From: a virus
Lineage: Duplodnaviria > Heunggongvirae > Uroviricota > Caudoviricetes
Reading direction: 5' to 3' (one strand)
Length of the DNA: 64,000 nt
Virus record (IMG/VR): IMGVR_UViG_3300021387_000895
Location: 27,302 to 91,301 of that record
Position 1 is the stretch's first letter, and each line of letters starts with the position of its first letter. Positions 3,601 through 57,146 of this stretch are shown piece after piece. The notes beneath the pieces are model-generated. The model made no database searches. It was given only the letters and a program-made list of their open reading frames with translations, and was not told the origin of the DNA. The translations under genes and the position numbers were made by a program.

Positions 3601-3644
3601 AGGTTGAACCTTTGCCCCGGAGCGTGTATAAGCGAGGTGAAAAC

Positions 3645-3737
3645 ATGATCGACTTTAACAAATACAAATTCTCGACCTCTACCCACTGGATTGCCAACAG
3701 CGGCAAGGACGAGGTCGAGGTTCACAATATGCAGTAG
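3645..3737 (+). pseudogene. remnant of an endolysin N-terminus (GC-rich donor)
   Basis: MIDFNKYKFSTSTHWIANSGKDE parallels the N-terminus of the 3809 endolysin (INFDEYLYSTGTHYISNSGKDE); ends after 30 aa. Confidence 0.4.
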
Positions 3738-3808
3738 AAGTTATGGCGTTTAACACCGTTAAGAACTAGTGTAAAATTCTAAGATGAATAGTTATAAGGA
3801 GATTAACG

Positions 3809-4831: not shown

Positions 4832-4855
4832 TTTATCAAAGGTTGGTGGTTTCAA

Positions 4856-5101
4856 ATGATGCCAATTGATGCCAAATACTCGATTCATTCTCTTGGTAAG
4901 ACTGTAACTTTTTACGATTTGGAAGGAAACAAATTTGAAGCAACTCTCGTTGGAGTACACGTTGAATCTGAAGATATTCTCTATCAGATCCCAAGAAGTA
5001 TTGCAGATGATATTCCTCCAGGATCAATAGCGTTTACCACAGGAGGAGTCGATTCATGGCAAAAGAATTTCTCCGGAACATGGGAAGCGGTGGAAAACTA
5101 A
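4856..5101 (+). CDS. hypothetical protein
   Basis: ORF with GGTGG RBS. Confidence 0.35.
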   Translation: MMPIDAKYSIHSLGKTVTFYDLEGNKFEATLVGVHVESEDILYQIPRSIADDIPPGSIAFTTGGVDSWQKNFSGTWEAVEN

Positions 5102-5538
5102 TGGGATTAAGATCTTTAAAGAGACTTAAAGCCTTTTTTGTTGGAGATTTTTATGAGATAATACTAGGATCTAGATCAAATCGAAGTGTTGACTTTAGCG
5201 ATCCAGAGGTTTTAAAGCAAGAGTTCATTCGAGCATTTTCAAGATTCAAATATTGGAAGTGGGACCCTTTCAATTTTACAAATGAATATACATATAAAGA
5301 AATCGAAAAAGAATCTCCAAAACATGTTTTCTATAATCCTTCAATCGGAACCGAGTATCCAAATCCTTCGATAGTATTTTATAAAGATAGCGGATCGGTT
5401 TCTTATTCTGTTGAGATATACGACATTAAAAACCCAAGTGATATAGCAAAGTATTATGCCAAGAGGTTTAAGATGTCGATTAAATCAACAGAAAATATTG
5501 GTGATAACTATAAGTATTCTTATACCATGACAGTATAA
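5056..5538 (+). CDS. hypothetical protein (true start probably internal ATG ~5101)
   Basis: ORF overlapping previous; no family recognised. Confidence 0.35.
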   Translation: MAKEFLRNMGSGGKLMGLRSLKRLKAFFVGDFYEIILGSRSNRSVDFSDPEVLKQEFIRAFSRFKYWKWDPFNFTNEYTYKEIEKESPKHVFYNPSIGTEYPNPSIVFYKDSGSVSYSVEIYDIKNPSDIAKYYAKRFKMSIKSTENIGDNYKYSYTMTV

Positions 5539-5553
5539 AAGGAGGTATGTAAA

Positions 5554-5814
5554 ATGGCTAAGTACAATAGTATTAACGATGTCGTTGCTGGGCATATCAA
5601 TGCTCTGATTGAAAAGAAGGGCTATAATAAGGAAGATTATCCCTTCCAGAATGATATTAATAGCGCACTTGTCCAGCTGGCTGCGATCTATGCGAAGATT
5701 GCCGATAAGGAAGTTGCAGTGGCTGCTGATGCATTTACAATTGTTGGTGCTCTGGATGCTTTCCTGGATGTCACCGATGAAGTAATTGCTGGTGAAAATT
5801 CTTCTAATCCATAG
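5554..5814 (+). CDS. hypothetical protein
   Basis: AAGGAGG RBS before ATG at 5554. Confidence 0.4.
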   Translation: MAKYNSINDVVAGHINALIEKKGYNKEDYPFQNDINSALVQLAAIYAKIADKEVAVAADAFTIVGALDAFLDVTDEVIAGENSSNP

Positions 5815-5910
5815 CTGAATCCTGAAACCTGATAGCATTTGACTAATATGACGGGACCGTGGTATACTTGTACTGCGGTCTCGTCTTCTTATTCAAAATG
5901 GGAGGGTAGT

Positions 5911-6840
5911 ATGGAACAAGGAAGACTAGACAATTGTATTTTAGAATGGCTTGAGGATCATAAAAAGAATTCTGTAAAGGTCTTATCTTATGATAGGCTT
6001 TTGACGGCTTACAAGCTTATGCGATGTTATCCTGTTGCGAATTATCGAGTTTGCGACATGACATCAAAAGAGATTCAGAGATATTTGAATACTCTTGTTG
6101 ATGATGGGTACTCGATGTCTACGATCAAAAAGCAGTTTAATCTTATAACAGCTTATTGGAAGTGGGCAATGTCACAGGGGCTTGTTTCAAATCCATTATA
6201 TTTAGGAGTTAATTTACCGTTCGAGGAAGCCCTCCACAGCCCTTCAAAAGAGATTGAAGCTTACTCTCACAGTGAGCAAGAGAAGCTCTTAGAAAGGCTC
6301 ATAAGGCTTGAGAAAGACCAATACGGAGCTGCTGTACTAATGCTTGAAGCTGGACTTAGGGTAGGGGAGGCTTTGGCTCTAACTTGGGATGATGTCTTAT
6401 GGAACAGACGAGCTATAAGAATTCATCGTACTCTGATAAGGAAGTCTTCTGAACCTATTACTTACGTTCAAGACAGTCCGAAAAGTAAGAAGAGCAAACG
6501 AACGATCCCGCTTAGTGATACGGCTATGGAGGTTCTTTCGAAGTTAAAAGTTCGTAAAACCGGATGCCGATTCATCTTCTGCGAGGATCAACACAGCAAA
6601 ATGCCATACAGCTACTCGTCAGTCGAGTTTCATATAAGGCATTTGTGTAAAGATTTGGTTATTCCTTACAAAGGACTTCATGCTTTCAGGCATACGTTCG
6701 CGACGAACTGCTACGAGCGAGGTTGTGATGTTAAGATTTTGTCAAAACTGCTCGGGCACGCAAATGTTGCAATAACATACAACACATACATCCATTTATA
6801 CGGAGATGCTCTTGAAGAAATGCGAAAGGTGATTGGGTAA
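5911..6840 (+). CDS. int: tyrosine integrase / site-specific recombinase
   Basis: ATG at 5911 after GGGAGGG; C-terminal catalytic motifs LRVGEALAL..., HAFRHTFAT, LGHANVAITYNTYIH (R..HxxR..Y). Confidence 0.85.
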   Translation: MEQGRLDNCILEWLEDHKKNSVKVLSYDRLLTAYKLMRCYPVANYRVCDMTSKEIQRYLNTLVDDGYSMSTIKKQFNLITAYWKWAMSQGLVSNPLYLGVNLPFEEALHSPSKEIEAYSHSEQEKLLERLIRLEKDQYGAAVLMLEAGLRVGEALALTWDDVLWNRRAIRIHRTLIRKSSEPITYVQDSPKSKKSKRTIPLSDTAMEVLSKLKVRKTGCRFIFCEDQHSKMPYSYSSVEFHIRHLCKDLVIPYKGLHAFRHTFATNCYERGCDVKILSKLLGHANVAITYNTYIHLYGDALEEMRKVIG

Positions 6841-7042
6841 ATCCTACAAAAAGAATGAGGCCCACATTATGCAGACCTCATAAAATATGAAGGTGCCACC
6901 CGGATTCGGACCGGGGAATGAAGGTTTTGCAGACCTTTATTGTACAACATGTAGCATAATTCAAAATGGCAGTACACCATATATAGTGGATTAAGTACTT
7001 AAGACGAGACCGCATTGTTAAGATATATTTAATACATAATAT

Positions 7043-7120
7043 GCTAACGTAGTTCAAATGGTAGAACAGCCCTTTTCAGAGTCCAGGGTCGAGGTACTGG
7101 TTCGAGTCCAGTCGTTAGTA
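7043..7120 (+). tRNA. tRNA-like element with atypical (11-nt) anticodon loop
   Basis: Acceptor GCTAACG/CGTTAGT, D arm GTTC-AAATGGTA-GAAC, T arm ACTGG-TTCGAGT-CCAGT fold; anticodon stem GCCCT/AGGGT encloses 11 nt; 200 bp downstream of integrase. Confidence 0.4.
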
Positions 7121-7188
7121 ATGAAAACCAATCGATAGGCTGGATCGATTTGCCGCTAGGTTTTTGCTAAAATTTTAGAGGCGGCACA

Positions 7189-7228
7189 TTCGCGTTTCAA
7201 ACAGGCTCCTTAGTAGAAAGGAGTGTAA
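7189..7228 (+). promoter_or_regulatory. conserved early-cassette motif TTCGCGTTTCAAACA..CTCCTTAGTAGAAAGGAG (representative copy)
   Basis: Same motif recurs ~30 times upstream of small ORFs; contains the RBS of the downstream gene. Confidence 0.5.
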
Positions 7229-7231
7229 GGC

Positions 7232-7495
7232 ATGCTGGGTGATTATGGATACATTAATGTCAGGAGTATTACTTCACGAAAAGATTGTCGACAAATTAAG
7301 AACCGAATTAGAGACGAATTACTTTGGAGAGACCGGAAACTAAACGAAGAAATAATTCATAAGGTTTTCACGAAGTGCATAGACCAACTTGAAAAAGTCG
7401 GGTATCTAACAGAAACGACAATAAGAGATTTTGTTGATGAAGAAGTTCTTGGCAAAGATTCTAAGTATGCTTTTTGGTTTGAAACTCTATCTTAA
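7232..7495 (+). CDS. hypothetical small protein
   Basis: Preceded by early-cassette motif. Confidence 0.45.
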   Translation: MLGDYGYINVRSITSRKDCRQIKNRIRDELLWRDRKLNEEIIHKVFTKCIDQLEKVGYLTETTIRDFVDEEVLGKDSKYAFWFETLS

Positions 7496-7552
7496 CAAGA
7501 AAGCTCTGATTAATTTCAGGGCTTTAATTTTTTATTTAAGGAGGAATTAGAT

Positions 7553-8062
7553 GTGACTAATTTCAAGCTCGAGGCCCCGTGGTACACTTACAATAAGATG
7601 GTTACAGAACTATTTGAAAGCGATCAGAATGTGGAAGTCGGTGATATTGTCGATACTGGCGATGGTACTTTTTCTATGACCATCAGCGTTTCTGATCATG
7701 ACAAGTTTGTTGCTCTGGATCGTGTTATGCCCAATAAAGTTGAATTTGGTAATATTATCCTGAATATTATTGTTAAGTCTGCCGAGAGCAATGATGTGAT
7801 CGAAGATTATGTTGAACTTTACAAGACTATTTTTAAGAATAACCTGCTTGTCAAGGATTTCAAGGTTACCACTGACTTTGCAGGATCTACTCATTGCTTT
7901 GTTCGGTTTTGGCCGGAAGTTGTACAATTTTTTAACGACAATACTTCCGACTATGACGGTAATTGGTCTGGCCTTGCTCAGGATATTGCGAAGGAAATCT
8001 TTGCAGATTGTCCGGCTGGTATTCACTTCTGCACAGCTAGTATCAAGGAAAATGAAGCTTAA
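7553..8062 (+). CDS. hypothetical protein (GTG start)
   Basis: AGGAGG 7 nt upstream of GTG; preceded by hairpin + TTTAATTTTTT element shared with 59.3 kb. Confidence 0.45.
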   Translation: MTNFKLEAPWYTYNKMVTELFESDQNVEVGDIVDTGDGTFSMTISVSDHDKFVALDRVMPNKVEFGNIILNIIVKSAESNDVIEDYVELYKTIFKNNLLVKDFKVTTDFAGSTHCFVRFWPEVVQFFNDNTSDYDGNWSGLAQDIAKEIFADCPAGIHFCTASIKENEA

Positions 8063-8113
8063 GATTAAAAAGAAGTGATATTCAATAGGTAGTCTTTTAT
8101 GGCTACCTAATTT

Positions 8114-8187
8114 GCTCGATTAGCTCAGTAGGTTAGAGCAGCGGCCTTATAAGCCGTGTGTCCTGAGTTCGAGTCTCAGATCGAGTA
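8114..8187 (+). tRNA. tRNA-Ile (anticodon TAT/UAU), AUA-decoding
   Basis: Full cloverleaf: acceptor GCTCGAT/ATCGAGT, D stem GCTC/GAGC, anticodon stem GCGGC/GCCGT loop CTTATAA, T arm CTGAG-TTCGAGT-CTCAG. Confidence 0.6.
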
Positions 8188-8233
8188 TTATATTCGCATT
8201 TCAAACAGCCTCCTTAGTAGAAAGGAGTGATCT

Positions 8234-8455
8234 ATGATGTCTAAACTCATCGGAATGCTTTTTAAGGTTAAAACTGATGAGAAAGCTTTTGAAGAACTAA
8301 GAGATAGGACTAAAGACATGCCAAAGGAGTACCAAGATAGAGCTGAGTTTACTTTAGCTTGCTATGGTTTATTGAAATTCGGTATGGCGGCACTTATAAG
8401 TTCGGATTTGAAAAAGAAAAATGTTGAGGATTCCATGGAAAGTGCGGCATTATAG
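8234..8455 (+). CDS. hypothetical small protein
   Basis: Early-cassette motif upstream; terminator hairpin downstream. Confidence 0.45.
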   Translation: MMSKLIGMLFKVKTDEKAFEELRDRTKDMPKEYQDRAEFTLACYGLLKFGMAALISSDLKKKNVEDSMESAAL

Positions 8456-8576
8456 AAAATCTAATAAGCTGAGATAACACTCGGCTTATTTTTTTTCGCG
8501 ATTAAAACACATTTCTTAATAGATATAGGAGTCTTGATTTATTCAAGGCTCTATAGTTTTTAGGAGGTGTGATCCG

Positions 8577-8822
8577 ATGAATAATGTTAAGATTTCAACT
8601 AGCTGTCTTGAGGGATATTTGACTAAGGCTTGTCCGCATTGCGTGTTTTGGAGTGATGGAGACAACGAATTGCTCAACGAGGTCTATCCGATGGCATATG
8701 GAAGAGAATTAGGAGCTTCAGTAGGATGTTGCATTCCGGCTCCAATTGGCGACTGTCCTTTCTTCAGAGTATATGTCGAAGGTAAGAATGTACTCGCTCA
8801 ACTGGTTCAATCCCAGGAGTGA
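8577..8822 (+). CDS. hypothetical Cys-rich small protein
   Basis: GGAGG RBS; C..CPHC..CC motifs. Confidence 0.4.
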   Translation: MNNVKISTSCLEGYLTKACPHCVFWSDGDNELLNEVYPMAYGRELGASVGCCIPAPIGDCPFFRVYVEGKNVLAQLVQSQE

Positions 8823-8971
8823 GCAAAATCAAAATGGGATTAAATAGTGCTGTTTTCATTTGATTACCTCCTTTCTTGATATACGATATATAGAGGTTCC
8901 CATGATGCCGACCACATTGCACTAGCCTCTATACATATTAATAGTGATTGGATATCAGGAGGTTATTAACA

Positions 8972-9205
8972 ATGAATAATGAAGAATTAAAAGGCGATTC
9001 GAAGTGTTTTGTCATTTTTTATCGCTATGGATTAAGTTGCGGTGTAACAAAAGTCACAAGAAAATTAGATGATGCTATACGATTTATCTCTGAAATAACT
9101 GGAATTTCGCGTTTCGAAATAAATCAGAATTATGAAATGGGAAAGACTGAGGTGTTTGATAGATATAATACATTTTATTATATAGAAGAGCACCCATTAG
9201 ATTAA
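8972..9205 (+). CDS. hypothetical small protein
   Basis: AGGAGG RBS before ATG 8972. Confidence 0.4.
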   Translation: MNNEELKGDSKCFVIFYRYGLSCGVTKVTRKLDDAIRFISEITGISRFEINQNYEMGKTEVFDRYNTFYYIEEHPLD

Positions 9206-9272
9206 TCATAATTAAAGATTATTCGCGATTAAAACAAGCTGTATAATGATAAATTTAAAGGAGGGTTTTCTC

Positions 9273-9431
9273 ATGAAGAAATTCTTTGTTGAAGCTCGAA
9301 CCGATAATGGTATGAGGATTACGATGACTGTGCCTGCCGAAACCGCTATGGATGCGGAATTGGAAGCCGGTCGCAAGCTCATTTCCACCGGGTTCAAGAA
9401 CTCGAAGATTTCCATCGTGGAAGAGTGCTAA
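9273..9431 (+). CDS. hypothetical small protein (52 aa)
   Basis: AAAGGAGGG RBS; followed by strong terminator hairpin + T10. Confidence 0.4.
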   Translation: MKKFFVEARTDNGMRITMTVPAETAMDAELEAGRKLISTGFKNSKISIVEEC

Positions 9432-9480
9432 GGTTTATCGACCGATAATAAGGGATGCATAACGTGTCCCTTATTTTTTT
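9432..9480 (+). terminator. rho-independent terminator
   Basis: AAGGGATGCATAACGTGTCCCTTATTTTTTTTTT hairpin + T-run. Confidence 0.6.
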
Positions 9481-9483
9481 TTT

Positions 9484-9570
9484 GCCGGTATGGTGGAATG
9501 GCAGACACCTCAGACTTAAAATCTGATGTCCTTATTGGGCGTGCGGGTTCAAGTCCCGCTACCGGTACCA
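9484..9570 (+). tRNA. tRNA-Leu (anticodon TAA/UAA), class II with long variable arm, encoded CCA
   Basis: Acceptor GCCGGTA/TACCGGT + A + CCA; anticodon stem TCAGA/TCTGA loop CTTAAAA; T arm GCGGG-TTCAAGT-CCCGC. Confidence 0.75.
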
Positions 9571-9687
9571 GCTGTGTACACGGCTACAGACAAAACCTTA
9601 TGGGGCCGTTTGGTTTTTGCGAAGGTTTTTAGGGGCGGCCCTTTCGCATTTGAAACACACTCCTTAATAGAAAGGAGATGTATTTGA

Positions 9688-9948
9688 ATGTTTATTTCGA
9701 CTAAGGACTTTTATGAGGTTGGATGGTTCATATTTAAGCTGTTTGCTTTATATCGAATCATAAGTGCCGCATGCGCGATTGCGTTTTCTCTGATCAAGTT
9801 TAAACTTGATGAAAAGAAAGATCGCAAGACTGTATCGGCACCTGAGGTTCGTAAGGAAATACTCAATAAGATTGAGCCGCTTCACCTCGCATACAAACGT
9901 AGTGAGATTGGGTTCAAGACTGACACTATAAGGGATAAAGAGCCTTAA
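9688..9948 (+). CDS. hypothetical small membrane protein
   Basis: Early motif upstream; hydrophobic N-terminus. Confidence 0.4.
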   Translation: MFISTKDFYEVGWFIFKLFALYRIISAACAIAFSLIKFKLDEKKDRKTVSAPEVRKEILNKIEPLHLAYKRSEIGFKTDTIRDKEP

Positions 9949-10010
9949 TTACAAGGCTCTAATTATTTTCGCGTTTCAAACATACTCCTTAGTAGAAAGG
10001 AGGTGTTAGT

Positions 10011-10220
10011 ATGAAAAAGTGCATATTAATCGGTATAGGCATTGTGTCAGCAATAATAGGCTATTGCATCGCTGATGATCTTCCGTTCATAAAAAGATTG
10101 AATGAAGAAAACGAACGTCGTGAAAAAGATATTGATGAACAATTAAATCGAGTTATGGACGGCATTCATGACGATATGGTAAAACGCGCTCATGACGCTT
10201 TGAACCGGAATAATAAGTAG
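10011..10220 (+). CDS. hypothetical small membrane protein
   Basis: Early motif + GGAGG RBS. Confidence 0.4.
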   Translation: MKKCILIGIGIVSAIIGYCIADDLPFIKRLNEENERREKDIDEQLNRVMDGIHDDMVKRAHDALNRNNK

Positions 10221-10314
10221 TTTTGGATTGACAAAGACGATGATATTTATCAGTGGTTACATGCCACTGATTTTTTCGCGTTTCAAACATACTCCTTAGT
10301 AGAAAGGAGATGGT

Positions 10315-42036: not shown

Positions 42037-42280
42037 CATTGAGAAGAAGCATGGGGTCATAGGCTATTATACAAGAATGGCTAAAGATGTTTTGGCGGAT
42101 TCTACTATTCTCTCAGATCATTATGTAAGAATAGGAAAAACAGAAGAAGAATATGGACGTGTCGATAATGCTGAGTGGTTATGTGAGATTCATATCAACT
42201 CTATTGAGCAAGCTCTTGATTATGCCGCGATTTTTCAAAAGATTGCTAATAGAATGAGAGAAGAAAAAGGAGAACAATAA
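42023..42280 (+). CDS. hypothetical protein
   Basis: Overlapping start. Confidence 0.4.
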   Translation: MLKIDIEKKHGVIGYYTRMAKDVLADSTILSDHYVRIGKTEEEYGRVDNAEWLCEIHINSIEQALDYAAIFQKIANRMREEKGEQ

Positions 42281-43368
42281 TGGATAAGCAAGTCAAAGTA
42301 GTTATCGGAGCAAATTATGGGGACGAGTGTAAAGGTCTCGTCTCCTATTGCTTAGCTAAAGAGGCCAACGCACAAGGAAGAAAGATATTAACGGTTCTTT
42401 TTAATGGCGGCGCACAAAGAGCTCATACCGCTGATGGCAAGATATTCCACTGTACTGGAACCGGAGCTGCCGTTGGATCTGATACTTACTATGATCAGAA
42501 ATTCATGGTAGATCCGGTAGCTCTTTGGCTTGATAAGGCTAAGGTATACATCAATCCTTATTGCAGAGTTGTCCTTCCGTGTGATATAACGAATAATCAG
42601 CAAAGAGAACTTCGTTTAAGAAATAGCAGCTCTGGACATGGAACCTGTGGAATGGGGATATTTGAGGCATGTAAAAGGAGTAAGATCGAAAAGTATTGCG
42701 TATATGCTAAAGAGCTATTTATGGGATGGCGGCAACTCTATGATAAGCTCATAGAAATTGAAAAGGAGTATGGGTATCCTAGAGATCTTGTATACAACAA
42801 TGATAATTTCATGAGAGCTGTAAAGTATGTAACGGACAAGTGCTCTATTTGTGATCTCGATGAACTGAAATACAAATATGATACGATTATATTTGAAGGT
42901 GGTCAGGGTCTAATGCTCGACCAGGATAATACTGGTGACTTTCCTTATCTTACTCCATCTTCAACCGGTGTTCAAAACATTACTCAACGATTATTGGATC
43001 TCGAAGTTAATCCAGAATTATATTATGTGTCCAGATCATATTTAACAAGGCATGGTAAAGGTCCTTTGCCGAGGGAATGCGAAAAGAGTGATATTAATCC
43101 AGAAATCGTTGACGAAACAAATAAACCTAATCCATGGCAAGAAGAGATACGGTATGGATTTTTGGATAACGAAGCCATGCTTAAAAGGGTGTGGAAAAAT
43201 GCATGCCCGATAGGTGGCGCTAAGATAAATCTTGTCTACACTCATCTTAACTACACTAACGATAAACTTGCAGTGGGAAGAAACAGCTTTGAAACGATCA
43301 AGAAACCTAGCTTTGTGAATCATGTTTATGGTTCGGATAGTAAAGATGCTATGGGAGTGATATTGTAG
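42280..43368 (+). CDS. adenylosuccinate synthetase homolog, PurZ-like (candidate 2-aminoadenine/dZ-monophosphate synthetase)
   Basis: VVIGANYGDECKG (cf. PurA GDEGKGK), GGAQRAHT, IIFEGGQGLMLDQDNTGDFPYLTPSST, YLTRHGKGPLP align to PurA motifs; 362 aa, i.e. truncated relative to cellular PurA as phage PurZ is. Confidence 0.6.
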   Translation: MDKQVKVVIGANYGDECKGLVSYCLAKEANAQGRKILTVLFNGGAQRAHTADGKIFHCTGTGAAVGSDTYYDQKFMVDPVALWLDKAKVYINPYCRVVLPCDITNNQQRELRLRNSSSGHGTCGMGIFEACKRSKIEKYCVYAKELFMGWRQLYDKLIEIEKEYGYPRDLVYNNDNFMRAVKYVTDKCSICDLDELKYKYDTIIFEGGQGLMLDQDNTGDFPYLTPSSTGVQNITQRLLDLEVNPELYYVSRSYLTRHGKGPLPRECEKSDINPEIVDETNKPNPWQEEIRYGFLDNEAMLKRVWKNACPIGGAKINLVYTHLNYTNDKLAVGRNSFETIKKPSFVNHVYGSDSKDAMGVIL

Positions 43369-45721: not shown

Positions 45722-45960
45722 AAAAGAAGACTGATGATTATGAGACTGCATGGCTTTGCAATGGCAAAGATCCAAAGTGCGCTGGTAAGGTAGGATGCTA
45801 TTACAATCTATATAACGGAAGAAGAGGCGCATGCTCGCATACGACCGATAATCGATATGCGCTTCATAAGAGATTAGATCCTAAGAAGAATCCTGAGATG
45901 TTTGACAAATTCAAACTTCCGGATCAGACAAGATATTATGAAAGGGAGAAACCAAAATGA
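45718..45960 (+). CDS. hypothetical Cys-rich protein (GTG start)
   Basis: Overlaps previous stop. Confidence 0.35.
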   Translation: MKKKTDDYETAWLCNGKDPKCAGKVGCYYNLYNGRRGACSHTTDNRYALHKRLDPKKNPEMFDKFKLPDQTRYYEREKPK

Positions 45961-46496
45961 GTGAAAAGTATAATGAATACTTGAAGAATCATATAGAAGG
46001 CGTGAAGAAAGCCTACATATGGCTGGAAGACCACTTTGAAGATATTCCCAGAAACATGGGAACTCACGCGATTTGGATGATCGCCGATCACGATGCTTCG
46101 AAGTATGGACCGGAAGAGTATGATGCCTATGACGAATACTTTTATGGTAAAAACAAGTCATACAAGGTCGTAAGTGACTTTAACTACGCCTGGCTTCATC
46201 ATATTCATCACAATCCTCATCACTGGCAGTATTGGGTGCTCAAGCATGACGACGAGCCTGAAGAGGCGCTTGAGATGCCATACTGGTATGTAATTGAGAT
46301 GATCTGCGATTGGTGGAGCTTCTCATTTAATAAGGGCAATCTTATGGAGATATTTGATTGGTACGAAAAGCATAAGGACATGGTGCTCCATGAGAAGACC
46401 CGGAAACTTGTTGAAGATATTCTTGATAGGATTAAGAAAGAATTAGAAAAAGAAAAGGAGGAGAGTGAAGAAAATGAAGTACCCGATAAGCTTTGA
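45957..46496 (+). CDS. HD-domain phosphohydrolase (DatZ-like dNTP triphosphohydrolase candidate)
   Basis: H...HD...H...H...D pattern: THAIWMIADHDASKY, LHHIHHNPHH, ICDWW; 179 aa. Confidence 0.5.
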   Translation: MSEKYNEYLKNHIEGVKKAYIWLEDHFEDIPRNMGTHAIWMIADHDASKYGPEEYDAYDEYFYGKNKSYKVVSDFNYAWLHHIHHNPHHWQYWVLKHDDEPEEALEMPYWYVIEMICDWWSFSFNKGNLMEIFDWYEKHKDMVLHEKTRKLVEDILDRIKKELEKEKEESEENEVPDKL

Positions 46497-47234: not shown

Positions 47235-47327
47235 CCAGTTCCCTTATCAAGAGAGTGAGAGTTCTTTTACAGGGCTCTTACTCTTTTTGCTTTCATTGGA
47301 CTAATTATATTCAGGAGGTAATCAATA

Positions 47328-47729
47328 ATGTCTACTGCTGTCGAGACCAACAAGATGTATGCCATGAAAGTTGAGTGTGAATTCATCGACAATAAAGATT
47401 CTAGCTTGTTTCCTTTCCCTCTGTCCTCGACCTTTGGTATCGCCACCACCAAGGAAGATGCCAAACGGATGATCAAAGAAATGGCAGATGACCTGGTCAA
47501 GTCCTGCACTGAGAGCGGGGAGAAAACCAGAGTCGAAGACAAGCAAGACGGATGGGTCGTTAAGGTTGAAGTCTATGATATTAAGGACGACAGTTTAAAT
47601 GGCCTTTGCGATAGGGTAGTGCTTAAATTCGGTTGCCTTGAGTATGAGCCGAACGTTATCGATGATCCTGAAGATATTACGAAATACGCACAGGTCGAGC
47701 AGGAAAATGATACGGGGGAAGAGTCCTAG
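47328..47729 (+). CDS. hypothetical acidic protein
   Basis: AGGAGG RBS. Confidence 0.45.
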   Translation: MSTAVETNKMYAMKVECEFIDNKDSSLFPFPLSSTFGIATTKEDAKRMIKEMADDLVKSCTESGEKTRVEDKQDGWVVKVEVYDIKDDSLNGLCDRVVLKFGCLEYEPNVIDDPEDITKYAQVEQENDTGEES

Positions 47730-47785: not shown

Positions 47786-48448
47786 ATGAGTACCAATGAG
47801 ATATGTAAGTATCAAATTAAGGACATGTTCAAACCATATATGATCACCAAAAAGGAACAAAAAGAATTGGTTGACCGATATTTTAATGGAGAATACGGTC
47901 TTCGTGATAGAATTATTGCAAGCTATATACCTTTGGTGATCGGCGTAATTAACAAGAAATTCATGTATGTAGATGAGCGATACGCTGACGATTGCTTTTC
48001 TCTGGGATGTATAGGACTTGTAAAAGCTTTCGATACCTTTAAGAACGATAAAGGAGCAAGCTTTTCTACGTATGCCTATACTTGCATCTGGAATTCCATC
48101 GCGCACTTCTTTAGGAAGATCAAAAGGACTCCGATTACGGTGTCCCTTGATGCCCCTTTAGCTTCTGAAGATTGTAGCGAAGAACTATGCGTAAAAGATA
48201 TTATCGAGGATGATCACGAAGAATCTCAACCAGAAAATGTTTTATTTGATTCTTGTTTCATAAGCGAAGTCGAATCTAAACTCAATCTTCTTAAAGAAGT
48301 AGAACGTGAAGTAATTAAAATCAGATATTTCAATGAGAAATGCTATAACCAAGAAGAAACAGCCAGAATTTTGGAGATGTCACAAGCAGGAGTATCAAGA
48401 GCAGAAAAAAGAGGCATAACTAAGATTAAGGAGGCTTTGTTTTCATGA
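47786..48448 (+). CDS. phage-encoded sigma-70-family RNA polymerase sigma factor (group 3, SigF/SigG-like size)
   Basis: Region 2 (YIPLVIGVINKKF...DDCFSLGCIGLVKAFDTF...STYAYTCIWNSIAHFFRK) and region 4 HTH (REVIKIRYFNEKCYNQEETARILEMSQAGVSRAEKRG). Confidence 0.75.
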   Translation: MSTNEICKYQIKDMFKPYMITKKEQKELVDRYFNGEYGLRDRIIASYIPLVIGVINKKFMYVDERYADDCFSLGCIGLVKAFDTFKNDKGASFSTYAYTCIWNSIAHFFRKIKRTPITVSLDAPLASEDCSEELCVKDIIEDDHEESQPENVLFDSCFISEVESKLNLLKEVEREVIKIRYFNEKCYNQEETARILEMSQAGVSRAEKRGITKIKEALFS

Positions 48449-49047
48449 ATACGATTGATGTTAGTGAGATGCTTGATATTATTGAGAAAGAACTTCATAT
48501 AAGGGAAAAATTACTTAGGCTTAAAGAATTATATTCTAAAGGAGCACAGAATACTAACGCCTGGAGTCTTGAGTGTGATCTTCGAGATAGAATCTGGTAT
48601 TGCAAAACATGTTACGAAGAGAAAGTCTACGAAGAAATCAATAAGATGTATGAGGAAATATTTCCTTTAAGGTGTCCTAAGGAAGGTTCTTTTATTGGGT
48701 ATAAGAAGGCTCTTATATTTCCAACTCCATATTCAACTGCAGAAGCTCTGGTTACTCTCGAAATACCAGAGGATGCTAAAAGGTCCAGTGCATTTGAAGG
48801 GAAATGCAGGTGCAGCAAAGCGAAGGTGCTGTCAATCGAAAATATTCACGTTGAAGGACTTTCTCATGACTATGCATATTCGGCATATGTGGATAAGCAT
48901 AGACTATGCTTCGATAAACAAGAGCCCGATTACTACGTAGGCGATATGGTTTATCCAGATTCCTTCGATGAATTCAGATGGAATGAATGTTCCAACGGTA
49001 TTCATTTCTTCATGACAAAAGAAGAAGCTTTGGAGTATAAGATTTGA
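48445..49047 (+). CDS. paralog 1 of tandem triplicated family (CPKEGSF..RSSAF..KCRCSKA..NECSNGIHFFMTKEEA)
   Basis: Shares >40% identical blocks with the next two genes. Confidence 0.5.
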   Translation: MNTIDVSEMLDIIEKELHIREKLLRLKELYSKGAQNTNAWSLECDLRDRIWYCKTCYEEKVYEEINKMYEEIFPLRCPKEGSFIGYKKALIFPTPYSTAEALVTLEIPEDAKRSSAFEGKCRCSKAKVLSIENIHVEGLSHDYAYSAYVDKHRLCFDKQEPDYYVGDMVYPDSFDEFRWNECSNGIHFFMTKEEALEYKI

Positions 49048-49072
49048 GTGATATTCTGAAAGGAGTGAGTAT

Positions 49073-49777
49073 ATGGAGTTCTCGATCAGTGATATCTTTG
49101 TGGAGAATCCAGGGTCCATACATTGTAGGTATAAGGATGAGAAGGACATATTCAAGTACGTGCAGTCAAAGGTAGAAGTCATTAGAAAGTTTGTAAATGA
49201 GCTTAATGAAGAGTATATTGACATTGTATATGCAATATACCCCATAGAATTTGCTGCTAACCAATTGCTAAAATATGCTAATGTGCTCAGTTGGGAACAC
49301 TTCGAGTATGTACTTCAAAGCTTTGAAGAGATTTTCCCGATGCGATGCCCGAAGGAAGGCTCGTTTGTCGCTTACAAATCTGCCGAGGTATGGGAGGTAG
49401 GAGGAAAAATACCTTTAGATGTTTTGGTCACGTTGGAAGTACCAGAAGATGCCAAAAGGTCGAGCGCTTTCACTAACAAATGCCGATGCAGTAAGGCGAG
49501 AGTGCTGTCCATTAATGGTTTGAGATACCCTAACACGAGAAGTAAGTACGATCAAGCTTATTCGAACTATCATTTACATCTAAAGTATAAGAAAGGAGAA
49601 ATGATATATCCTGACAAGTTTGACGAGAATAGATGGAATGAATGCTCAAATGGTATTCATTTCTTTATGACAAAAGAAGAGGCGATACAATACGCCAATC
49701 GACGGAAACCATTCACAAGACAACTAATTAAAGCACAATCTGAAATCGATAATGCCAGAGAGGAGAACAAGCAATAA
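49073..49777 (+). CDS. paralog 2 of tandem triplicated family
   Basis: FPMRCPKEGSFVAYK...EDAKRSSAFTNKCRCSKARVLSI...NRWNECSNGIHFFMTKEEA. Confidence 0.5.
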   Translation: MEFSISDIFVENPGSIHCRYKDEKDIFKYVQSKVEVIRKFVNELNEEYIDIVYAIYPIEFAANQLLKYANVLSWEHFEYVLQSFEEIFPMRCPKEGSFVAYKSAEVWEVGGKIPLDVLVTLEVPEDAKRSSAFTNKCRCSKARVLSINGLRYPNTRSKYDQAYSNYHLHLKYKKGEMIYPDKFDENRWNECSNGIHFFMTKEEAIQYANRRKPFTRQLIKAQSEIDNAREENKQ

Positions 49778-50451
49778 TGAATACAAATGATATCTGGGTC
49801 GATAAACATGAAAAGATCGAAGATGATGAGCTTGAGAATAAGGTCTTCGATAGATATATGGCGTGGTTTAAAGATAAAATAATTCTCGTCAAGTATATGC
49901 GAGCAAAACCTCATGGACATGGTACATATGGGGCATTTGTTCACGAACAAGAAATAGCCGACAACATCGATAATGCAAAAAGCATGTTTACCAAAGAGCA
50001 CTATGATATACTGAAAGAGATGCTTGAAAAAGAGTTTCCTTTGAAGTGCCCTGAGAAAGGATCATTTGTTGGATACAAGAAGTGTGTAGTGCTTGATAAG
50101 TCTGAGCAATGCGGATTTTTTGGGTCAGATTGTGATTTAAATGCCAACCATGTTCTCGTTACTCTTGAGATCCCAAGCACTTCCAGAAGATCCAGCGCAT
50201 TTGGAAATAAGTGCCGATGTGAATCAGCAAAGGTGATTGATATTATCGGCATTAACGCTGATCCATATGATAGAACAATCATTCATTATGAATCGGCTAT
50301 TTCCGGATTCGTTCCGCATGGTCCTCAACTTCTCCATTATATTAAGAATGGAATTGTAGTTGCTGACTCCTTTGATGATAATCGCTGGCGGGAGTGCTCT
50401 CATGGAATACACTTCTTTATGGAACCTGAAGAAGCAATAAACTACTGGTAA
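49777..50451 (+). CDS. paralog 3 of tandem triplicated family
   Basis: FPLKCPEKGSFVGYKK...RRSSAFGNKCRCESAKV...NRWRECSHGIHFFMEPEEA. Confidence 0.5.
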   Translation: MNTNDIWVDKHEKIEDDELENKVFDRYMAWFKDKIILVKYMRAKPHGHGTYGAFVHEQEIADNIDNAKSMFTKEHYDILKEMLEKEFPLKCPEKGSFVGYKKCVVLDKSEQCGFFGSDCDLNANHVLVTLEIPSTSRRSSAFGNKCRCESAKVIDIIGINADPYDRTIIHYESAISGFVPHGPQLLHYIKNGIVVADSFDDNRWRECSHGIHFFMEPEEAINYW

Positions 50452-50468: not shown

Positions 50469-50954
50469 ATGATTATATCGTGTTACCCTGGAGTTGGAAA
50501 ATCTACCATCGCAAACAAGCGAATTGATATAATAGATCTCGACTCTAGACTGTTCAATGACGATTCCGTTATATCAGTTGACTTCTTCAAGAGGTATGTG
50601 AGTGTTGCAAAGTACTTGAGCAAGCAGGGGAAAATAGTACTTGTATCATCTCATTCTAATGTAAGGAAACAGCTTCTTGACAGTCATGATGAGAAGATAG
50701 CCGAGATATTCCCTTCAGAGAAATTGGAAGACGAATGGATCGAGCGTCTAAGATTAAGATGGGAAACCAGCGGAAATAAGAGCGATTACTATGCTTACTG
50801 GAGAAGCAAGATCAACTATGTTGAAGATATTAAAGACATGAAGGACGACTTTAATAAGGAGAAGTCATGCCTATGGTTCAGACAAAGTGAACTGTGTGAC
50901 ATGGATTATGACCTTGAAGAAGTCATAGAAGGACTTACATATGAGTATCAGTAA
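50469..50954 (+). CDS. P-loop nucleotide kinase-like protein (possible (d)NMP kinase)
   Basis: N-terminal CYPGVGKST Walker A right after Met; 161 aa. Confidence 0.45.
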   Translation: MIISCYPGVGKSTIANKRIDIIDLDSRLFNDDSVISVDFFKRYVSVAKYLSKQGKIVLVSSHSNVRKQLLDSHDEKIAEIFPSEKLEDEWIERLRLRWETSGNKSDYYAYWRSKINYVEDIKDMKDDFNKEKSCLWFRQSELCDMDYDLEEVIEGLTYEYQ

Positions 50955-50966
50955 GAGGAATAAGAA

Positions 50967-51338
50967 ATGAGATATGCTAATATAGATAGAAATACCCATT
51001 ACTTTATCTTGACAAGACCTCTTGATTATATTCCGATTCTCAATCTATACATTGGTAAAACTTATGGTTATGGTCACCCTGAAGTTTGGGCTGAATTTGA
51101 AGTAATTGAGGATCAATATAAAATTGAAGACGGCTATAAAATTGAACTAAAAGCCATTGATCCTATTTATGGGAGAGAAACTTTTTATCAAATGGATTTC
51201 GACTCTATGGTAGAATCTGGAATAAATATTATAAAAAAGACAAATGATAATCAACATGTAGAAGAAATTACTTGGATGGAACCACTATGTTGTGGTTTAA
51301 AACTAGTACATACCGCAAGTATATTGGTTAATGACTGA
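50967..51338 (+). CDS. hypothetical protein
   Basis: RBS GAGGAATAAG. Confidence 0.4.
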   Translation: MRYANIDRNTHYFILTRPLDYIPILNLYIGKTYGYGHPEVWAEFEVIEDQYKIEDGYKIELKAIDPIYGRETFYQMDFDSMVESGINIIKKTNDNQHVEEITWMEPLCCGLKLVHTASILVND

Positions 51339-51475
51339 ATAAATGATATATTTTCTCGCGCTGAAAACACGCAGGAGAATGAAGAGGGATTTGTATTGAA
51401 TCTCTCTTCTTTATTTTTACGAATGGAATTTGAATCGAAGACTTATATTTGAAATACGAAATTTGGAGGTGAAGG

Positions 51476-52925: not shown

Positions 52926-55900
52926 ATGGACTTCTATAAAATCAGGGAAAGGAGTCGCAAAGGTGGGGTTGAAATTTACCCTGATTTTCGAGTCGATGAT
53001 CTCGAGGATCTCCTTGTTCGAGGCGGTAAGTTTTATGCGGTGTGGGATGACGACAAAGGTCTGTGGTCACAGAATCCATTAACAGCACGAAGGATAGTCG
53101 ATAAGGATCTTTGGGAGTATGCTGATAAATTCAGAGACAAGTTTCACTTTGATGGTCCGATCAATGTAATGACCATGGAATCGGATTCGAGTGGTTCATG
53201 GAATCGCTTCGTTGCATATTTGAAACGCTCTCCTGATTCCAATGTTCAGCTCGACAACAAGCTTACGTTTCTGAACAGTAAAGTGACGAAGAAGGACTAT
53301 ATTTCGAAGCGGCTTGACTATGCGCTTGAAGAGGGTGACTATTCAGCATGGGATAAAATTGTAGGGACTTTGTACGATGAGAAAGAGAGGGAAAAGATTG
53401 AATGGTCTATTGGTGCAATTATATCTGGAGACAGCAAGACCATTCAGAAGTTCTGTGTGTTCTATGGTGAACCCGGAACTGGTAAGGGAACTATTCTGGA
53501 AATCGTACAGAGATTGTTCAAAGGATATTTTACCGTATTTGATGCGAAAGCTCTTGCTTCTGCTTCCAATCAGTTCTCGACAGAGATGTTTGCTTCAAAT
53601 CCTTTGGTTGCTATGCAGACCGAGGGTGACCTTTCCAGAATCGAAGATAATACAAAGCTGAACGCGATCGTATCTCACGAGCCTATTGTGATAAATGAGA
53701 AGAACAAATCACAGTATATGGGAAAGGCGAATTGCTTCTTGATGCTGGCTACAAATACTCCTGTCAAGATAACCGATGCGAGAAGTGGTATCATTCGAAG
53801 GCTGATTGATATTAATCCGAGCGGAAGGACGATCCCTTCGAATGAGTATGAGGCACTCATGAGTCAGATTGATTTTCAGCTCGGGGGTATTGCATGGCAT
53901 TGCCTTCAGGTGTATCGAGAACTCGGCAAGAATTACTATAAGACTTACAAGCCTACACAGATGATTATGAAGACCGACGTCTTTTATAATTTTGTAGAGG
54001 CTAATCTTGAGACATTTGAAGGGCAGGATGGGATATCTCTCAAACAAGCTTATGCGATGTATAAGGATTACTGTGATGAGGCTCTTGTAGAATACAAGTT
54101 GCCTAGACATCGTTTCAGGGAGGAGCTTAGAGCTTATTATGATCGGTTTGATGAGGTAACGAGAGATCCTGATGGGAAGCAGATCAGGAGCTGGTTCTCG
54201 GGATTTAAGAAAGATAAATTTGAACCGCCCGTTTTAAAGAAAACTCAAAAACCATTGGCGATGGTTCTCGAGTGTACTGAAAGTCTACTGGATGATATTT
54301 TGGCTGATTGTAAGGCTCAGTATGCGAACGAGGATGAAAAGCCAAGTATTGCGTGGAGCAAGGTTGAGACGAGACTTAAGGATCTCGATACGACCAGGCT
54401 CCATTATATTTTGCCCAAGAATCCGGAATGGAAGTACAAGTTGATCATGATCGACTTTGATATTAAGAATGCCGATGGTGAAAAAGACATGCTTCTTAAT
54501 CTGGAAGCTGCAAGTAAATGGACAAAGACTTATGCTGAGTTTTCAAAAGGTGGCGGAGGAATACACCTGATATATTGGTACGACGGGGATATTGACAAGT
54601 TGTCTTCTGTGTATGCTCCAGGAATTGAAGTGAAAGTGTTTAGAGGCAATTCGTCAATGCGAAGGAGATTGTCGAAGTGCAATAACATTCCAATTGCCGT
54701 TCTGACTTCAGGACTTCCTATGAAGGAGGAAAAGATGATTGACGTAAAAGCTGTTAAATCTCAGAAGAAGCTGGTTGAAATTGTTAAGGACTGTTTGAAT
54801 AAAAAGCATCATGGAGCTACAAAGCCTGAGATTGATTTTTTAGTAAAGATATTGGATGATGCATACAACAGCGGATTGGTATATGACATAAGCGATTTGG
54901 AGCATGATATTCTCATGTTCGCTATCAATTCGAGTCATAACGCCCTTTATTGCAAGAATCAAGTCAAGAAGATGAAGTTCAAGTCTGATCAGCCGATCGA
55001 AGAGGTTTCTCAGAGAAAAGATCCTGTTACAGATGAACTTGTGTTCTTTGATATTGAGGTATTCCCCAATCTGTTGCTGGTGAATTGGAAAATTGCCGGA
55101 GATGGTAATCCTGTAATGAGAATGATAAATCCGTCTCCACAGGATATTGAGAATCTGTTTAAGTTTAAGCTGGTTGGATTCAATTGCAGAAAGTACGACA
55201 ATCATATTTTATACGGAAGATACCTTGGTCTCAGTGTTGAGGAATTATACGATCTGTCACAAAGGATAATTGTTGAACAGGCTCGTGATGCTTTTTATCC
55301 TGAAGCATACAACATCAGTTATACAGATGTTTATGATTTTTCAAGTAAAAAACAGAGCCTTAAGAAATTTGAGATCGAACTTGGCATTCATCATCAGGAG
55401 CTTGGTCTACCATGGGATAAACCTGTTCCGGAAGAGATGTGGAACCAGGTTGCAGAGTACTGTGACAACGATGTTATAGCGACTGAGGCTACTTTTAATG
55501 CCCGTAAAGCTGATTTCACAGCAAGACAAATTCTGGCGGCTGTTGCTGGTCTTACGGTCAATGATACTACAAATACACTTACAACAAGAATTATATTTGG
55601 TGGTGAACGTAAACCTCAGCATGAGTTTAACTATCGCGATATGGGGGATGAATCCGATGCCCATATGAGTACGGATGATATTTTAACCGATAAGCGATGG
55701 ACGGTATTTGACAGTAAAGGTCGTCCAATCTTTCCTGGATATCGGTATGAGTTTGGTAAATCGACTTACCGAGGGGAAGAAGTTGGTGAGGGAGGCTATG
55801 TGTATGCAGAGCCAGGAATACATTGCCATGTCGCTCTTCTTGATATTGCATCAATGCATCCATCATCCATTGTCGCTGAAGATCTGTTCGGACCTACATA

Positions 55901-57146
55901 CACTCAGCGGTTCCATGATATTCTGAATGCTCGAATTGCTATAAAGCATGGCGATTTTGATACAGCAAGGAAACTGCTGGATGGTAAATTGGCCCCGTTC
56001 CTCGATGATGAGAAAGCTGCAAAGGATCTTGCTCAGGCTCTGAAGATAGCTATCAATTCAGTTTACGGATTGACAAGCGCCAGGTTCGAGAATCCGTTCA
56101 GGGATAAGAGAAATAAGGATAATATTGTTGCAAAGCGTGGAGCTCTGTTTATGGTTAATCTTAAGCATGAAGTTCAGGCTCGCGGATTTACTGTTGCACA
56201 TATTAAGACTGACTCAATCAAGATACCCAATGCTACACCTGATATTATTCAGTTCGTTATGGAATACGGAAAGCTTTACGGATACAATTTCGAGCACGAA
56301 GCTACGTATGATCGTATGTGCCTTGTTAATGACGCAGTTTATATTGCAAGGTTTGCCACTTCTGAATGGTGTGAGAATGAGTATGGATATTCTCCAAAAG
56401 AGAATTATGAGGATGGCGGACAATGGACTGCTACCGGCGCTCAATTTCAGCAGCCATACGTGTTCAAGACTTTGTTCTCGGGCGATGAATTGATGTTTAG
56501 CGATTTCTGCGAGACAAAGAGCGTTACCGGAGGAGCTATCTATTTGGACATGAATGAATCGCTTCCTGATATTTCAGACACTGAGGCAACACTTGAGAAG
56601 GCTATGAAGAAAAGTGGCATCACATTGGATGATATTCTAAGATGTGAAGCCGATCCTTATGCGATTGAAGGTATGAATTCTGATCAAGGCAGCGTGATGC
56701 ACTATTTACTAGAGCTTAGAAAGGATATTTCAGCATGCCATGATTATCACTTTGTCGGAAGGGCTGGATTATTTACACCAATAAAGCCTGGAGCCGGAGG
56801 CGGTGTAATGTACCGAGAAAAGAACGGAAAGTATTACGCTGTCGGTGGAACAAAGGGCTATAGGTGGCTTGAAGCCGAGGTGGTGATGTCGCTTCACAAA
56901 GAGAATGATATTGACAAAAGGTATCATGAGGATCTTGCAAACGAGGCAATCAAAGCTATCTCTGAGTATGGAGATTTTGAAGCATTCGTTTCTTCTGAGC
57001 CTTATATTTCATATGATGATAGTAAACCTCCGTTTGATCTGGTTCCATGTGGAGATGGCAAATACAACACATGCATGGAATGTCCAGCCTGTAAAGGAGA
57101 TCAATGCCTTAATGGGTATAGCTTATCTACTTATGTGAATGGGTGA
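52926..57146 (+). CDS. fused replicase: P-loop NTPase + AEP primase-polymerase domain + family B DNA polymerase with 3'-5' exonuclease
   Basis: Walker A GEPGTGKGT (aa ~183); AEP motifs MIDFDIKNADGEKD and SKGGGGIHLIYWY; Exo I FFDIEVFPN, Exo II FNCRKYDNHIL, Exo III YCDNDV; Pol A LDIASMHPSSIVA, Pol B KIAINSVYG, Pol C HIKTDSI. Confidence 0.75.
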   Translation: MDFYKIRERSRKGGVEIYPDFRVDDLEDLLVRGGKFYAVWDDDKGLWSQNPLTARRIVDKDLWEYADKFRDKFHFDGPINVMTMESDSSGSWNRFVAYLKRSPDSNVQLDNKLTFLNSKVTKKDYISKRLDYALEEGDYSAWDKIVGTLYDEKEREKIEWSIGAIISGDSKTIQKFCVFYGEPGTGKGTILEIVQRLFKGYFTVFDAKALASASNQFSTEMFASNPLVAMQTEGDLSRIEDNTKLNAIVSHEPIVINEKNKSQYMGKANCFLMLATNTPVKITDARSGIIRRLIDINPSGRTIPSNEYEALMSQIDFQLGGIAWHCLQVYRELGKNYYKTYKPTQMIMKTDVFYNFVEANLETFEGQDGISLKQAYAMYKDYCDEALVEYKLPRHRFREELRAYYDRFDEVTRDPDGKQIRSWFSGFKKDKFEPPVLKKTQKPLAMVLECTESLLDDILADCKAQYANEDEKPSIAWSKVETRLKDLDTTRLHYILPKNPEWKYKLIMIDFDIKNADGEKDMLLNLEAASKWTKTYAEFSKGGGGIHLIYWYDGDIDKLSSVYAPGIEVKVFRGNSSMRRRLSKCNNIPIAVLTSGLPMKEEKMIDVKAVKSQKKLVEIVKDCLNKKHHGATKPEIDFLVKILDDAYNSGLVYDISDLEHDILMFAINSSHNALYCKNQVKKMKFKSDQPIEEVSQRKDPVTDELVFFDIEVFPNLLLVNWKIAGDGNPVMRMINPSPQDIENLFKFKLVGFNCRKYDNHILYGRYLGLSVEELYDLSQRIIVEQARDAFYPEAYNISYTDVYDFSSKKQSLKKFEIELGIHHQELGLPWDKPVPEEMWNQVAEYCDNDVIATEATFNARKADFTARQILAAVAGLTVNDTTNTLTTRIIFGGERKPQHEFNYRDMGDESDAHMSTDDILTDKRWTVFDSKGRPIFPGYRYEFGKSTYRGEEVGEGGYVYAEPGIHCHVALLDIASMHPSSIVAEDLFGPTYTQRFHDILNARIAIKHGDFDTARKLLDGKLAPFLDDEKAAKDLAQALKIAINSVYGLTSARFENPFRDKRNKDNIVAKRGALFMVNLKHEVQARGFTVAHIKTDSIKIPNATPDIIQFVMEYGKLYGYNFEHEATYDRMCLVNDAVYIARFATSEWCENEYGYSPKENYEDGGQWTATGAQFQQPYVFKTLFSGDELMFSDFCETKSVTGGAIYLDMNESLPDISDTEATLEKAMKKSGITLDDILRCEADPYAIEGMNSDQGSVMHYLLELRKDISACHDYHFVGRAGLFTPIKPGAGGGVMYREKNGKYYAVGGTKGYRWLEAEVVMSLHKENDIDKRYHEDLANEAIKAISEYGDFEAFVSSEPYISYDDSKPPFDLVPCGDGKYNTCMECPACKGDQCLNGYSLSTYVNG

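Follow-up and report, generated by a model that had tools for sequence, protein, structure and literature searches.

Three tandem DUF5758-family genes behind a phage sigma factor gene: candidates for a role in host interference

The stretch of phage DNA analysed here (64,000 nucleotides (nt), hereafter the window; positions 27,302 to 91,301 of IMG/VR virus record IMGVR_UViG_3300021387_000895, Caudoviricetes) carries a sigma-70-family gene (47786-48448, 220 amino acids (aa)) that is followed immediately by three tandem paralogs: p1 (48445-49047, 200 aa), p2 (49073-49777, 234 aa) and p3 (49777-50451, 224 aa), all four genes lying on the + strand. These open reading frames (ORFs) are exactly as described in the original prediction, which was made from the sequence alone and which proposed either sigma/anti-sigma accessory factors or host-takeover proteins. 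By their profile matches, p1-p3 are new members of a known, uncharacterised family, DUF5758 (PF19062), and they lack the pentapeptide repeats that most of their relatives carry. The reading that we favour, and to which we give about an even chance, is that the paralogs are modular host-interference proteins (for takeover or for counter-defence) that are made before the structural genes. Their role is probably early host interference of this kind, rather than service as dedicated partners of the sigma factor.

The paralogs and the DUF5758 family

Assignment to DUF5758 was made with Pfam, where PF19062 has a gathering cut-off of 26.9 bits for the whole protein. p1 scores 98.3 bits (E 3e-28), p2 scores 114.1 (E 3.5e-33) and p3 scores 84.9 (E 4e-24), with the domain covering aa 68-198 of p1 (nt 48646-49038), aa 83-207 of p2 (nt 49319-49693) and aa 82-223 of p3 (nt 50020-50445). 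All three also match PHROG 9562 (unknown function), and a scan of NCBIfam returned nothing for any of them. Hidden Markov model (HMM) searches and alignment thus place the paralogs in one catalogued family with no known function, and link them to no known structural or enzymatic family.

A three-way alignment of the paralogs has 53 invariant columns and contains every shared block quoted in the original prediction. Common to all three are FP.xCP..GSF..YK, LVTLE.P...RSSAF..KCRC..A.V and D.FD..RW.ECS.GIHFFM..EEA..Y. The similarity is restricted to the C-terminal ~125 residues, that is, to DUF5758, where the copies are 47-61% identical and reach Smith-Waterman z-scores of 47-75 against shuffled sequences. 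The N-terminal 70-85 residues (nt 48445-48645 in p1, 49073-49318 in p2 and 49777-50019 in p3) have little or no detectable similarity to one another (z 0.5, 0.9 and 3.5; 18-27% identity), and that of p2 is modelled, with moderate confidence, as a helical bundle. We found no match in p1-p3 to the pentapeptide-repeat families PF00805, PF13576 or PF13599 at E <= 1; repeat-like pentapeptide motifs number 0-1 per window paralog versus at least three in 172 of 261 relatives. While p1 and p3 end no more than two residues past the end of DUF5758, p2 continues into a predicted helical C-terminal tail of 27 aa (nt 49694-49774), and tails longer than 15 aa are found in just 5 of the 261 relatives.

To place the copies in the family we used 138 domains sampled from 159 DUF5758 loci (numbered with an L below). 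In a neighbour-joining tree of these domains the window copies group to the exclusion of all others, as ((p1,p2),p3), with p3 as the most diverged copy. Because the three copies form one clade among the 138 homologous domains, the tree indicates a tandem triplication of a DUF5758-family gene within the lineage. Other arrays are monophyletic too, with five copies in L090, three in L076 and two each in L057 and L106, and tandem expansion of DUF5758 therefore recurs independently. The five-copy array occupies 5521-10260 of a contig from a Lachnospira metagenome-assembled genome, and three-copy arrays are present in L013, L018 and L076. Between the copies of the L090, L013, L018 and L076 arrays the N-terminal repeats vary in length.

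A domain-only profile run exhaustively with HMMER retrieves 6,053 cluster representatives at E <= 1e-3, of which 3,282 pass E <= 1e-10, with clusters counted at 50% identity. A word-indexed search returned 2,239 relatives, mostly built of N-terminal pentapeptide repeats followed by DUF5758. In 250 of 261 relatives no more than five residues follow the domain, and the part N-terminal to it ranges from 0 to 316 aa in the same set. The N-terminal fusion partners seen in giant viruses and phages (RING, MORN, HEAT and pentapeptide modules) are of the interaction or scaffold type. DUF5758 is found in phages of many hosts and in giant viruses. When 185,579 bacterial and archaeal species, each represented by one genome, were searched with strict patterns, only 82 matches were confirmed, mostly in metagenome-assembled genomes of Clostridia and Bacteroidales; judged by these searches, the family is almost confined to viruses. 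The literature on phage pentapeptide-repeat proteins, which we also searched, yielded nothing relevant.

Named relatives include the 'pentapeptide repeat protein' of cluster-E-type mycobacteriophages (Pat3 gp56, Phaux gp60), gp186 of Synechococcus phage B23 and EVB67_031 of Rhizobium phage RHph_TM3_3_14B. Like the window proteins, these are products of non-structural phage genes with a C-terminal DUF5758 and the invariant R, K-C-R, Y and E-C-x-x-G-I-H-x-F; unlike them, they have N-terminal pentapeptide repeats, of which the window proteins have none. Pat3-type relatives are usually encoded in a single copy, whereas the window has three copies in tandem directly after a sigma factor gene.

Conservation across the 138 domains points to a compact core (residue numbers follow p2). 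R129, R138, Y172, C191 and H196 are present in all 138, and K102, K136, C137, E190 and G194 are nearly invariant. All of the family-invariant residues (R129, K136-C137-R138, Y172, E190-C191 and G194-I-H196-x-F) are kept in p1, p2 and p3, and the invariant core is retained in distant homologues from Mycobacterium, Synechococcus, Rhizobium and Thiohalocapsa phages. The original description of the family as Cys-rich is apt for close relatives, among which four Cys are conserved, but does not extend to the family as a whole, where a single Cys (C191) and a single His (H196) are invariant. Positions C92/C137/C139/C191/H196 read CCCCH in 119 of the 138 domains; in 17 domains Ala replaces C139, and the Mycobacterium, Synechococcus and Rhizobium phage homologues have lost C92. 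Since R129, R138, Y172, C191 and H196 are invariant while C139 and C92 are dispensable, the functional core of DUF5758 is likely to be a Cys/His-centred site flanked by Arg, Lys and Tyr.

A Foldseek search with a full-length model was uninformative, being dominated by generic helical bundles that matched the N-terminal part, and DUF5758 was therefore modelled alone. The domain-only AlphaFold model is confident (predicted local distance difference test score, pLDDT, 87; predicted template-modelling score, pTM, 0.83) and predicts a beta-rich fold with a C-terminal helix. Its Foldseek matches go down to E 4e-9, with TM-scores of 0.6-0.77 at 15-31% sequence identity. Most of them come from giant viruses (Klosneuvirus, Harvfovirus, Hyperionvirus and Mimivirus L812, L87 and L94), and Acidovorax phage ACP17 has four copies with the same predicted fold. 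The giant-virus families and ACP17 resemble the window array in predicted fold, in being multi-copy within a genome and in joining a variable N-terminal partner to a constant C-terminal domain. The giant-virus families differ in the nature of that partner (RING, MORN, HEAT or pentapeptide), in their low sequence identity, and in belonging mostly to viruses of eukaryotes. Sequence and profile searches against the PDB gave nothing beyond marginal matches to SH3 domains (E 0.06-1.7), which we rejected as chance.

The sigma factor and the genomic setting of DUF5758

The first gene of the array was proposed to encode a sigma factor, and the Pfam matches bear this out. Region 2 lies at aa 44-114 (nt 47915-48127; Sigma70_r2, 48.6 bits against a cut-off of 24) and region 4 at aa 166-216 (nt 48281-48433; Sigma70_r4, 32 bits against a cut-off of 24.1); no match to region 3 is listed in the same scan. 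The protein matches PHROG 351 ('RNA polymerase sigma factor') at 6e-35 and passes the NCBIfam superfamily model TIGR02937 with 95.7 bits against a cut-off of 42.9. The top specific NCBIfam models are those of the sporulation factors SigK, SigE, SigG and SigF, and the sigma misses the equivalog cut-off of each (119.4 versus 298.65, 92.9 versus 339, 92.3 versus 372 and 79.4 versus 321, respectively). Its closest sequence matches in the PDB are sporulation SigF and a fragment of SigK. In tblastn comparisons it shares 26-36% identity with sigma genes from Bacillus phages (Goe8, Eldridge), phages of Clostridium and Enterocloster, and numerous human-gut phage contigs, the figure being 28-36% for Goe8, Eldridge and the gut contigs. 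When 5.8 billion proteins were searched with a word index, the query alone came back, and a pattern scan of IMG/VR found no close relative.

Phage-encoded sporulation-like sigma factors have been described as a class (Schwartz, Lehmkuhl & Lennon 2022, mSphere, PMC9429907). On these profile matches, the window sigma belongs to that class as a very diverged member. It has in common with the sporulation-like sigmas of phages such as Goe8 and Eldridge that it is of the sigma-70 family and has SigK, SigE, SigG and SigF as its best models, but it differs in falling under every equivalog cut-off and in having no listed match to region 3.

The sigma gene and the three paralogs are part of a predicted transcription unit of ~4.1 kb, bounded on the + strand by two terminator-like hairpins, one upstream (47249-47287, a 17-bp stem then a T-run) and one downstream (51381-51409, a 13-bp stem then a T-run). 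The unit opens with a 133-aa gene (47328-47729, +) that has a Shine-Dalgarno sequence upstream and only sub-threshold matches in Pfam and PHROG. The sigma gene, p1, p2 and p3 follow in this order, and then a 161-aa gene (50469-50954, +) with an N-terminal Walker-A-like GVGKST and a match to phrog_4182 (unknown function); a 123-aa gene without family assignment (50967-51338, +) closes the unit. The stop codon of the sigma gene and the start codon of p1 overlap as ATGA, the stop of p2 and the start of p3 overlap by 1 nt, and Shine-Dalgarno sequences of the GGAGG/AAGGAG type are found 7-10 nt 5' of the sigma gene and of all three paralog starts. We take the predicted co-transcription and translational coupling to be real. 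No close DNA relative of the locus emerged from a megablast comparison with deposited phages, and an exact-protein look-up of p2 in an assembly index gave no record.

In other phages DUF5758 genes keep regulatory and DNA-metabolism company. The Pat3 gene stands at the start of an early operon, after a helix-turn-helix (HTH) regulator and two small ORFs, that of the Rhizobium phage follows repressor genes, and that of the Thiohalocapsa phage precedes a DNA polymerase/primase. Across the 159 loci, small HTH proteins (17 loci) and DNA methylases (10 and 8 loci) recur as neighbours with labels supported by Pfam. Bro-N/antirepressor-like genes (15 loci) and YqaJ-like and RecT-like recombination genes, labelled by reading their sequences, recur as well, as does dUTPase. 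No partner gene co-travels with DUF5758 across the loci, and this includes the genes that flank the array in the window.

In ~12 of the 159 loci, six of which are one clade, a full-length sigma-like gene is present no more than 6 kb from DUF5758; the other ~147 have no detectable sigma-like gene within this distance. The two are direct neighbours in two settings only, the window and a single unrelated clade of IMG/VR phages of ~133-138 kb (the ~135-kb clade). In that clade two tandem sigma-like genes (~190 aa) with a 71-aa Cys-rich gene between them are followed by a pentapeptide-DUF5758 gene, at roughly 3100-6470 in locus coordinates in L038, L045, L046, L049, L059 and L063. The gap from sigma to DUF5758 is 16 nt in L045, L046 and L063 and ~60 nt in L059, and in L038 and L049 one gene is inserted between the sigma pair and the DUF5758 gene. 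The paired sigma-like genes are reminiscent of gp33/gp34 of SPO1. The sigmas of the ~135-kb clade are only marginally similar to that of the window (phmmer E ~1e-3), their DUF5758 domains are not the nearest relatives of the window domains, and the two settings have no other flanking gene in common.

How much weight this recurrence deserves was judged with the window set aside, as it had been selected for the feature. By our own estimate, made with no formal test, one independent recurrence of the adjacency is not clearly beyond chance for genes that reside in common early or regulatory regions. Among deposited phages, 158 have DUF5758 (152 of them mycobacteriophages) and 190 have a relative of the window sigma, with an overlap of 0. 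In L073, a phage related to that of the window, the only DUF5758 gene occupies a different position and has no sigma in its flanks. As judged from these loci, the link between sigma and DUF5758 is weak, and a sigma-accessory role as a general property of DUF5758 is not supported.

Host interference and the competing explanations

A constant C-terminal domain, swappable N-terminal modules, a regulatory and DNA-metabolism context and repeated tandem expansion together lead us to read the features of DUF5758 as a signature of host interference. In such a scheme, the fast-diverging N-terminal 70-85 aa, which stand at the position of the pentapeptide repeats of most relatives, would select the target or partner, and the constant C-terminal DUF5758 would contribute a shared activity, binding or catalytic and possibly dependent on metal via the Cys/His pair. 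Co-expression with the sigma factor would reflect that sigma and paralogs are of one temporal class, and the paralogs would not regulate it. A host-takeover role, one of the two possibilities in the original prediction, is compatible with everything seen and is the reading we prefer; that the paralogs have a host target, and DUF5758 an activity, is what we infer from the features above.

Several observations weigh against this interpretation. A search of the literature for DUF5758, PF19062 and DUF7666 found no paper, and no annotated homologue with a function came to light. The defence-system models of PADLOC, a library that does not hold anti-defence proteins, have no match to p1-p3. A universal Cys4 zinc site had to be rejected for the family as a whole, C139 and C92 being dispensable, and the domain carries no remarkable net charge, with values near neutral or slightly negative across the family (median -1.6 per 100 aa). 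Early expression, moreover, we infer from gene context in other phages and not from the window phage itself. Finally, host interference leaves the tight coupling to sigma, and its recurrence in a second clade, as coincidence.

These last two features would be explained if the paralogs were accessory factors of the adjacent sigma (anti-sigma, co-sigma, or factors of specificity or stability) with the phage sigma or host RNA polymerase as their binding partner. We consider this rather improbable, and equally so its corollary that the triplication would tune or diversify promoter use. In its favour, sigma and paralogs share one operon with an ATGA stop/start overlap, their adjacency recurs in a clade of ~133-138 kb that is unrelated and shares no other flanking gene, and the N-terminus of p2 is modelled as a small bundle of helices, a form that certain anti-sigma factors also take. 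The wider sample, however, tells against it: sigma-like genes are within reach in only ~12 of the 159 loci, half of these in a single clade, the one independent recurrence roughly equals our chance expectation, the 158 DUF5758 phages and the 190 with a relative of the sigma do not overlap at all, and the related phage L073 carries its DUF5758 gene elsewhere with no sigma beside it. The fold is also common in giant viruses of eukaryotes, which to our knowledge make no use of bacterial-type sigma factors. Nor do the proteins themselves look like anti-sigma factors: p1-p3 have no match at E <= 1 to the anti-sigma Pfam families considered (ZAS, SpoIIAB-type, FlgM, AsiA and Rsd), and the HxxxCxxC motif of ZAS is absent from all three. 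T4 AsiA and SPO1-type factors are small phage proteins encoded beside transcription-switch genes; we detected no similarity of sequence, motif or fold between them and the paralogs, which have the genomic logic alone in common with them. Little therefore speaks for the sigma/anti-sigma half of the original prediction, given the ~147 loci without a nearby sigma, the empty overlap among deposited phages and the missing anti-sigma matches.

It is unlikely, in our view, that DUF5758 is instead a nucleic-acid- or nucleotide-binding module (possibly zinc-binding) of phage replication, recombination or regulation, with the paralogs acting as phage-internal regulators. The near-neutral charge of the domain does not support a basic nucleic-acid-binding surface, multi-copy, lineage-specific expansion with hyper-variable N-termini would be unusual for core replication factors, and the position of the gene differs between related phages. 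The invariant Arg, Lys and Tyr, together with Cys and His, would nevertheless suit such a module, as would usual neighbours such as HTH regulators, methylases and genes of replication and recombination; one homologue has been annotated as 'RNA-binding protein' by its depositor, and most family members are fused to pentapeptide repeats, which in MfpA and Qnr mimic DNA. That the array consists of decaying or redundant duplicates without distinct functions strikes us as highly improbable: the marked divergence of p3 and the N-termini with little or no detectable similarity could be taken that way, but all three ORFs are intact, have good Shine-Dalgarno sequences, keep the family-invariant residues and score far above the Pfam cut-off. 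A bolder reading, which we regard as very doubtful, would make DUF5758 an unrecognised virus-hallmark effector domain with a new fold, found in phages and giant viruses, whose invariant Cys/His/Arg core exerts one common biochemical activity on a universally conserved cellular component. It would have been recruited beside sigma genes here and in the ~135-kb clade because it joins the phage sigma in acting on the transcription machinery.

Other features of the window and the significance of DUF5758

The original prediction also referred to repeated promoter classes, one of which the sigma factor might read, and a repeated promoter-like motif with a strong strand bias is indeed present in the window. 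TCGC[AG]-N3-5-NAAAC[AT] has 32 copies on the + strand of the 64 kb and a single one on the - strand. The + strand sites are at 7190, 8194, 8496, 9223, 9644, 9969, 10276, 10690, 11025, 11816, 12158, 12421, 12794, 14004, 14335, 14883, 15569, 16140, 16732, 16917, 17198, 17728, 19226, 26230, 30585, 33718, 36794, 38858, 47032, 51356, 58744 and 61882. The majority precede small genes at 7-18 kb, and the sigma operon has one copy on either side (47032 and 51356). The motif usually lies just 3' of a terminator hairpin and T-run, and a TAtAAT-like or TTAGTAGA element is found 5-7 nt downstream of it. Its upstream element is unlike TTGACA, and the inferred spacer to the -10-like element is ~14-15 nt. 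This is less than the 17 nt usual at promoters of sigma A; spacers as short as this can occur with sporulation-type sigmas.

Many copies of the motif are followed by a 5' leader, CTCCTTAGTAGAAAGGAG (7214, 8218, 9668, 9993, 10300, 17752, 38882, 58768 and similar sites). The leader contains CTCCTT, which is exactly complementary to the AAGGAG core of the Shine-Dalgarno sequence 5-6 nt downstream, and these leaders could thus form a conserved hairpin that hides the ribosome-binding site.

Elsewhere in the window, a short homologue of adenylosuccinate synthetase (42280-43368, +, 362 aa) matches PF00709 at 6e-21 and PHROG 1211, the PurZ-type '2-aminooxy adenylosuccinate synthetase', at 8e-38; a PDB search with this protein listed PurA enzymes only, at E 1e-9 and weaker. 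A DUF5662 protein with His-rich HD-like motifs is encoded 2.6 kb downstream of it (45957-46496, +) and has no match in the PDB. Judging by these homologies, the phage might make 2-aminoadenine (Z) DNA. A 1,406-aa ORF (52926-57146, +) has the look of a fusion of primase/helicase and DNA polymerase, with a Walker A motif and polymerase-like motifs recognised by reading; its sole Pfam match is DUF5906 (residues 179-284). Three tRNA-like genes on the + strand (7042-7121, with an odd two-base anticodon call; 8113-8188, tRNA-Ile(TAT); 9484-9570, tRNA-Leu(TAA)) sit in the array of small genes and promoter-like motifs, just downstream of a tyrosine integrase gene (5839-6840, +; phrog_1, 6.5e-61).

Taken alone, the locus is ordinary: a diverged phage sigma of a described kind, together with a local expansion of a catalogued DUF. 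DUF5758 itself is worth attention. It comprises ~6,000 clusters at 50% identity and is near-exclusive to viruses of bacteria and eukaryotes. It sits C-terminal to a swappable interaction module, has undergone tandem expansion repeatedly, and has a confident predicted structure without a solved relative, and our literature search turned up no paper on it; this is a profile typical of arms-race effectors. The repeat-free, triplicated copies of the window and the sigma-adjacent copies of the ~135-kb clade would be convenient starting points for functional work, and once DUF5758 had a function, thousands of genes in phages and giant viruses could be annotated together.

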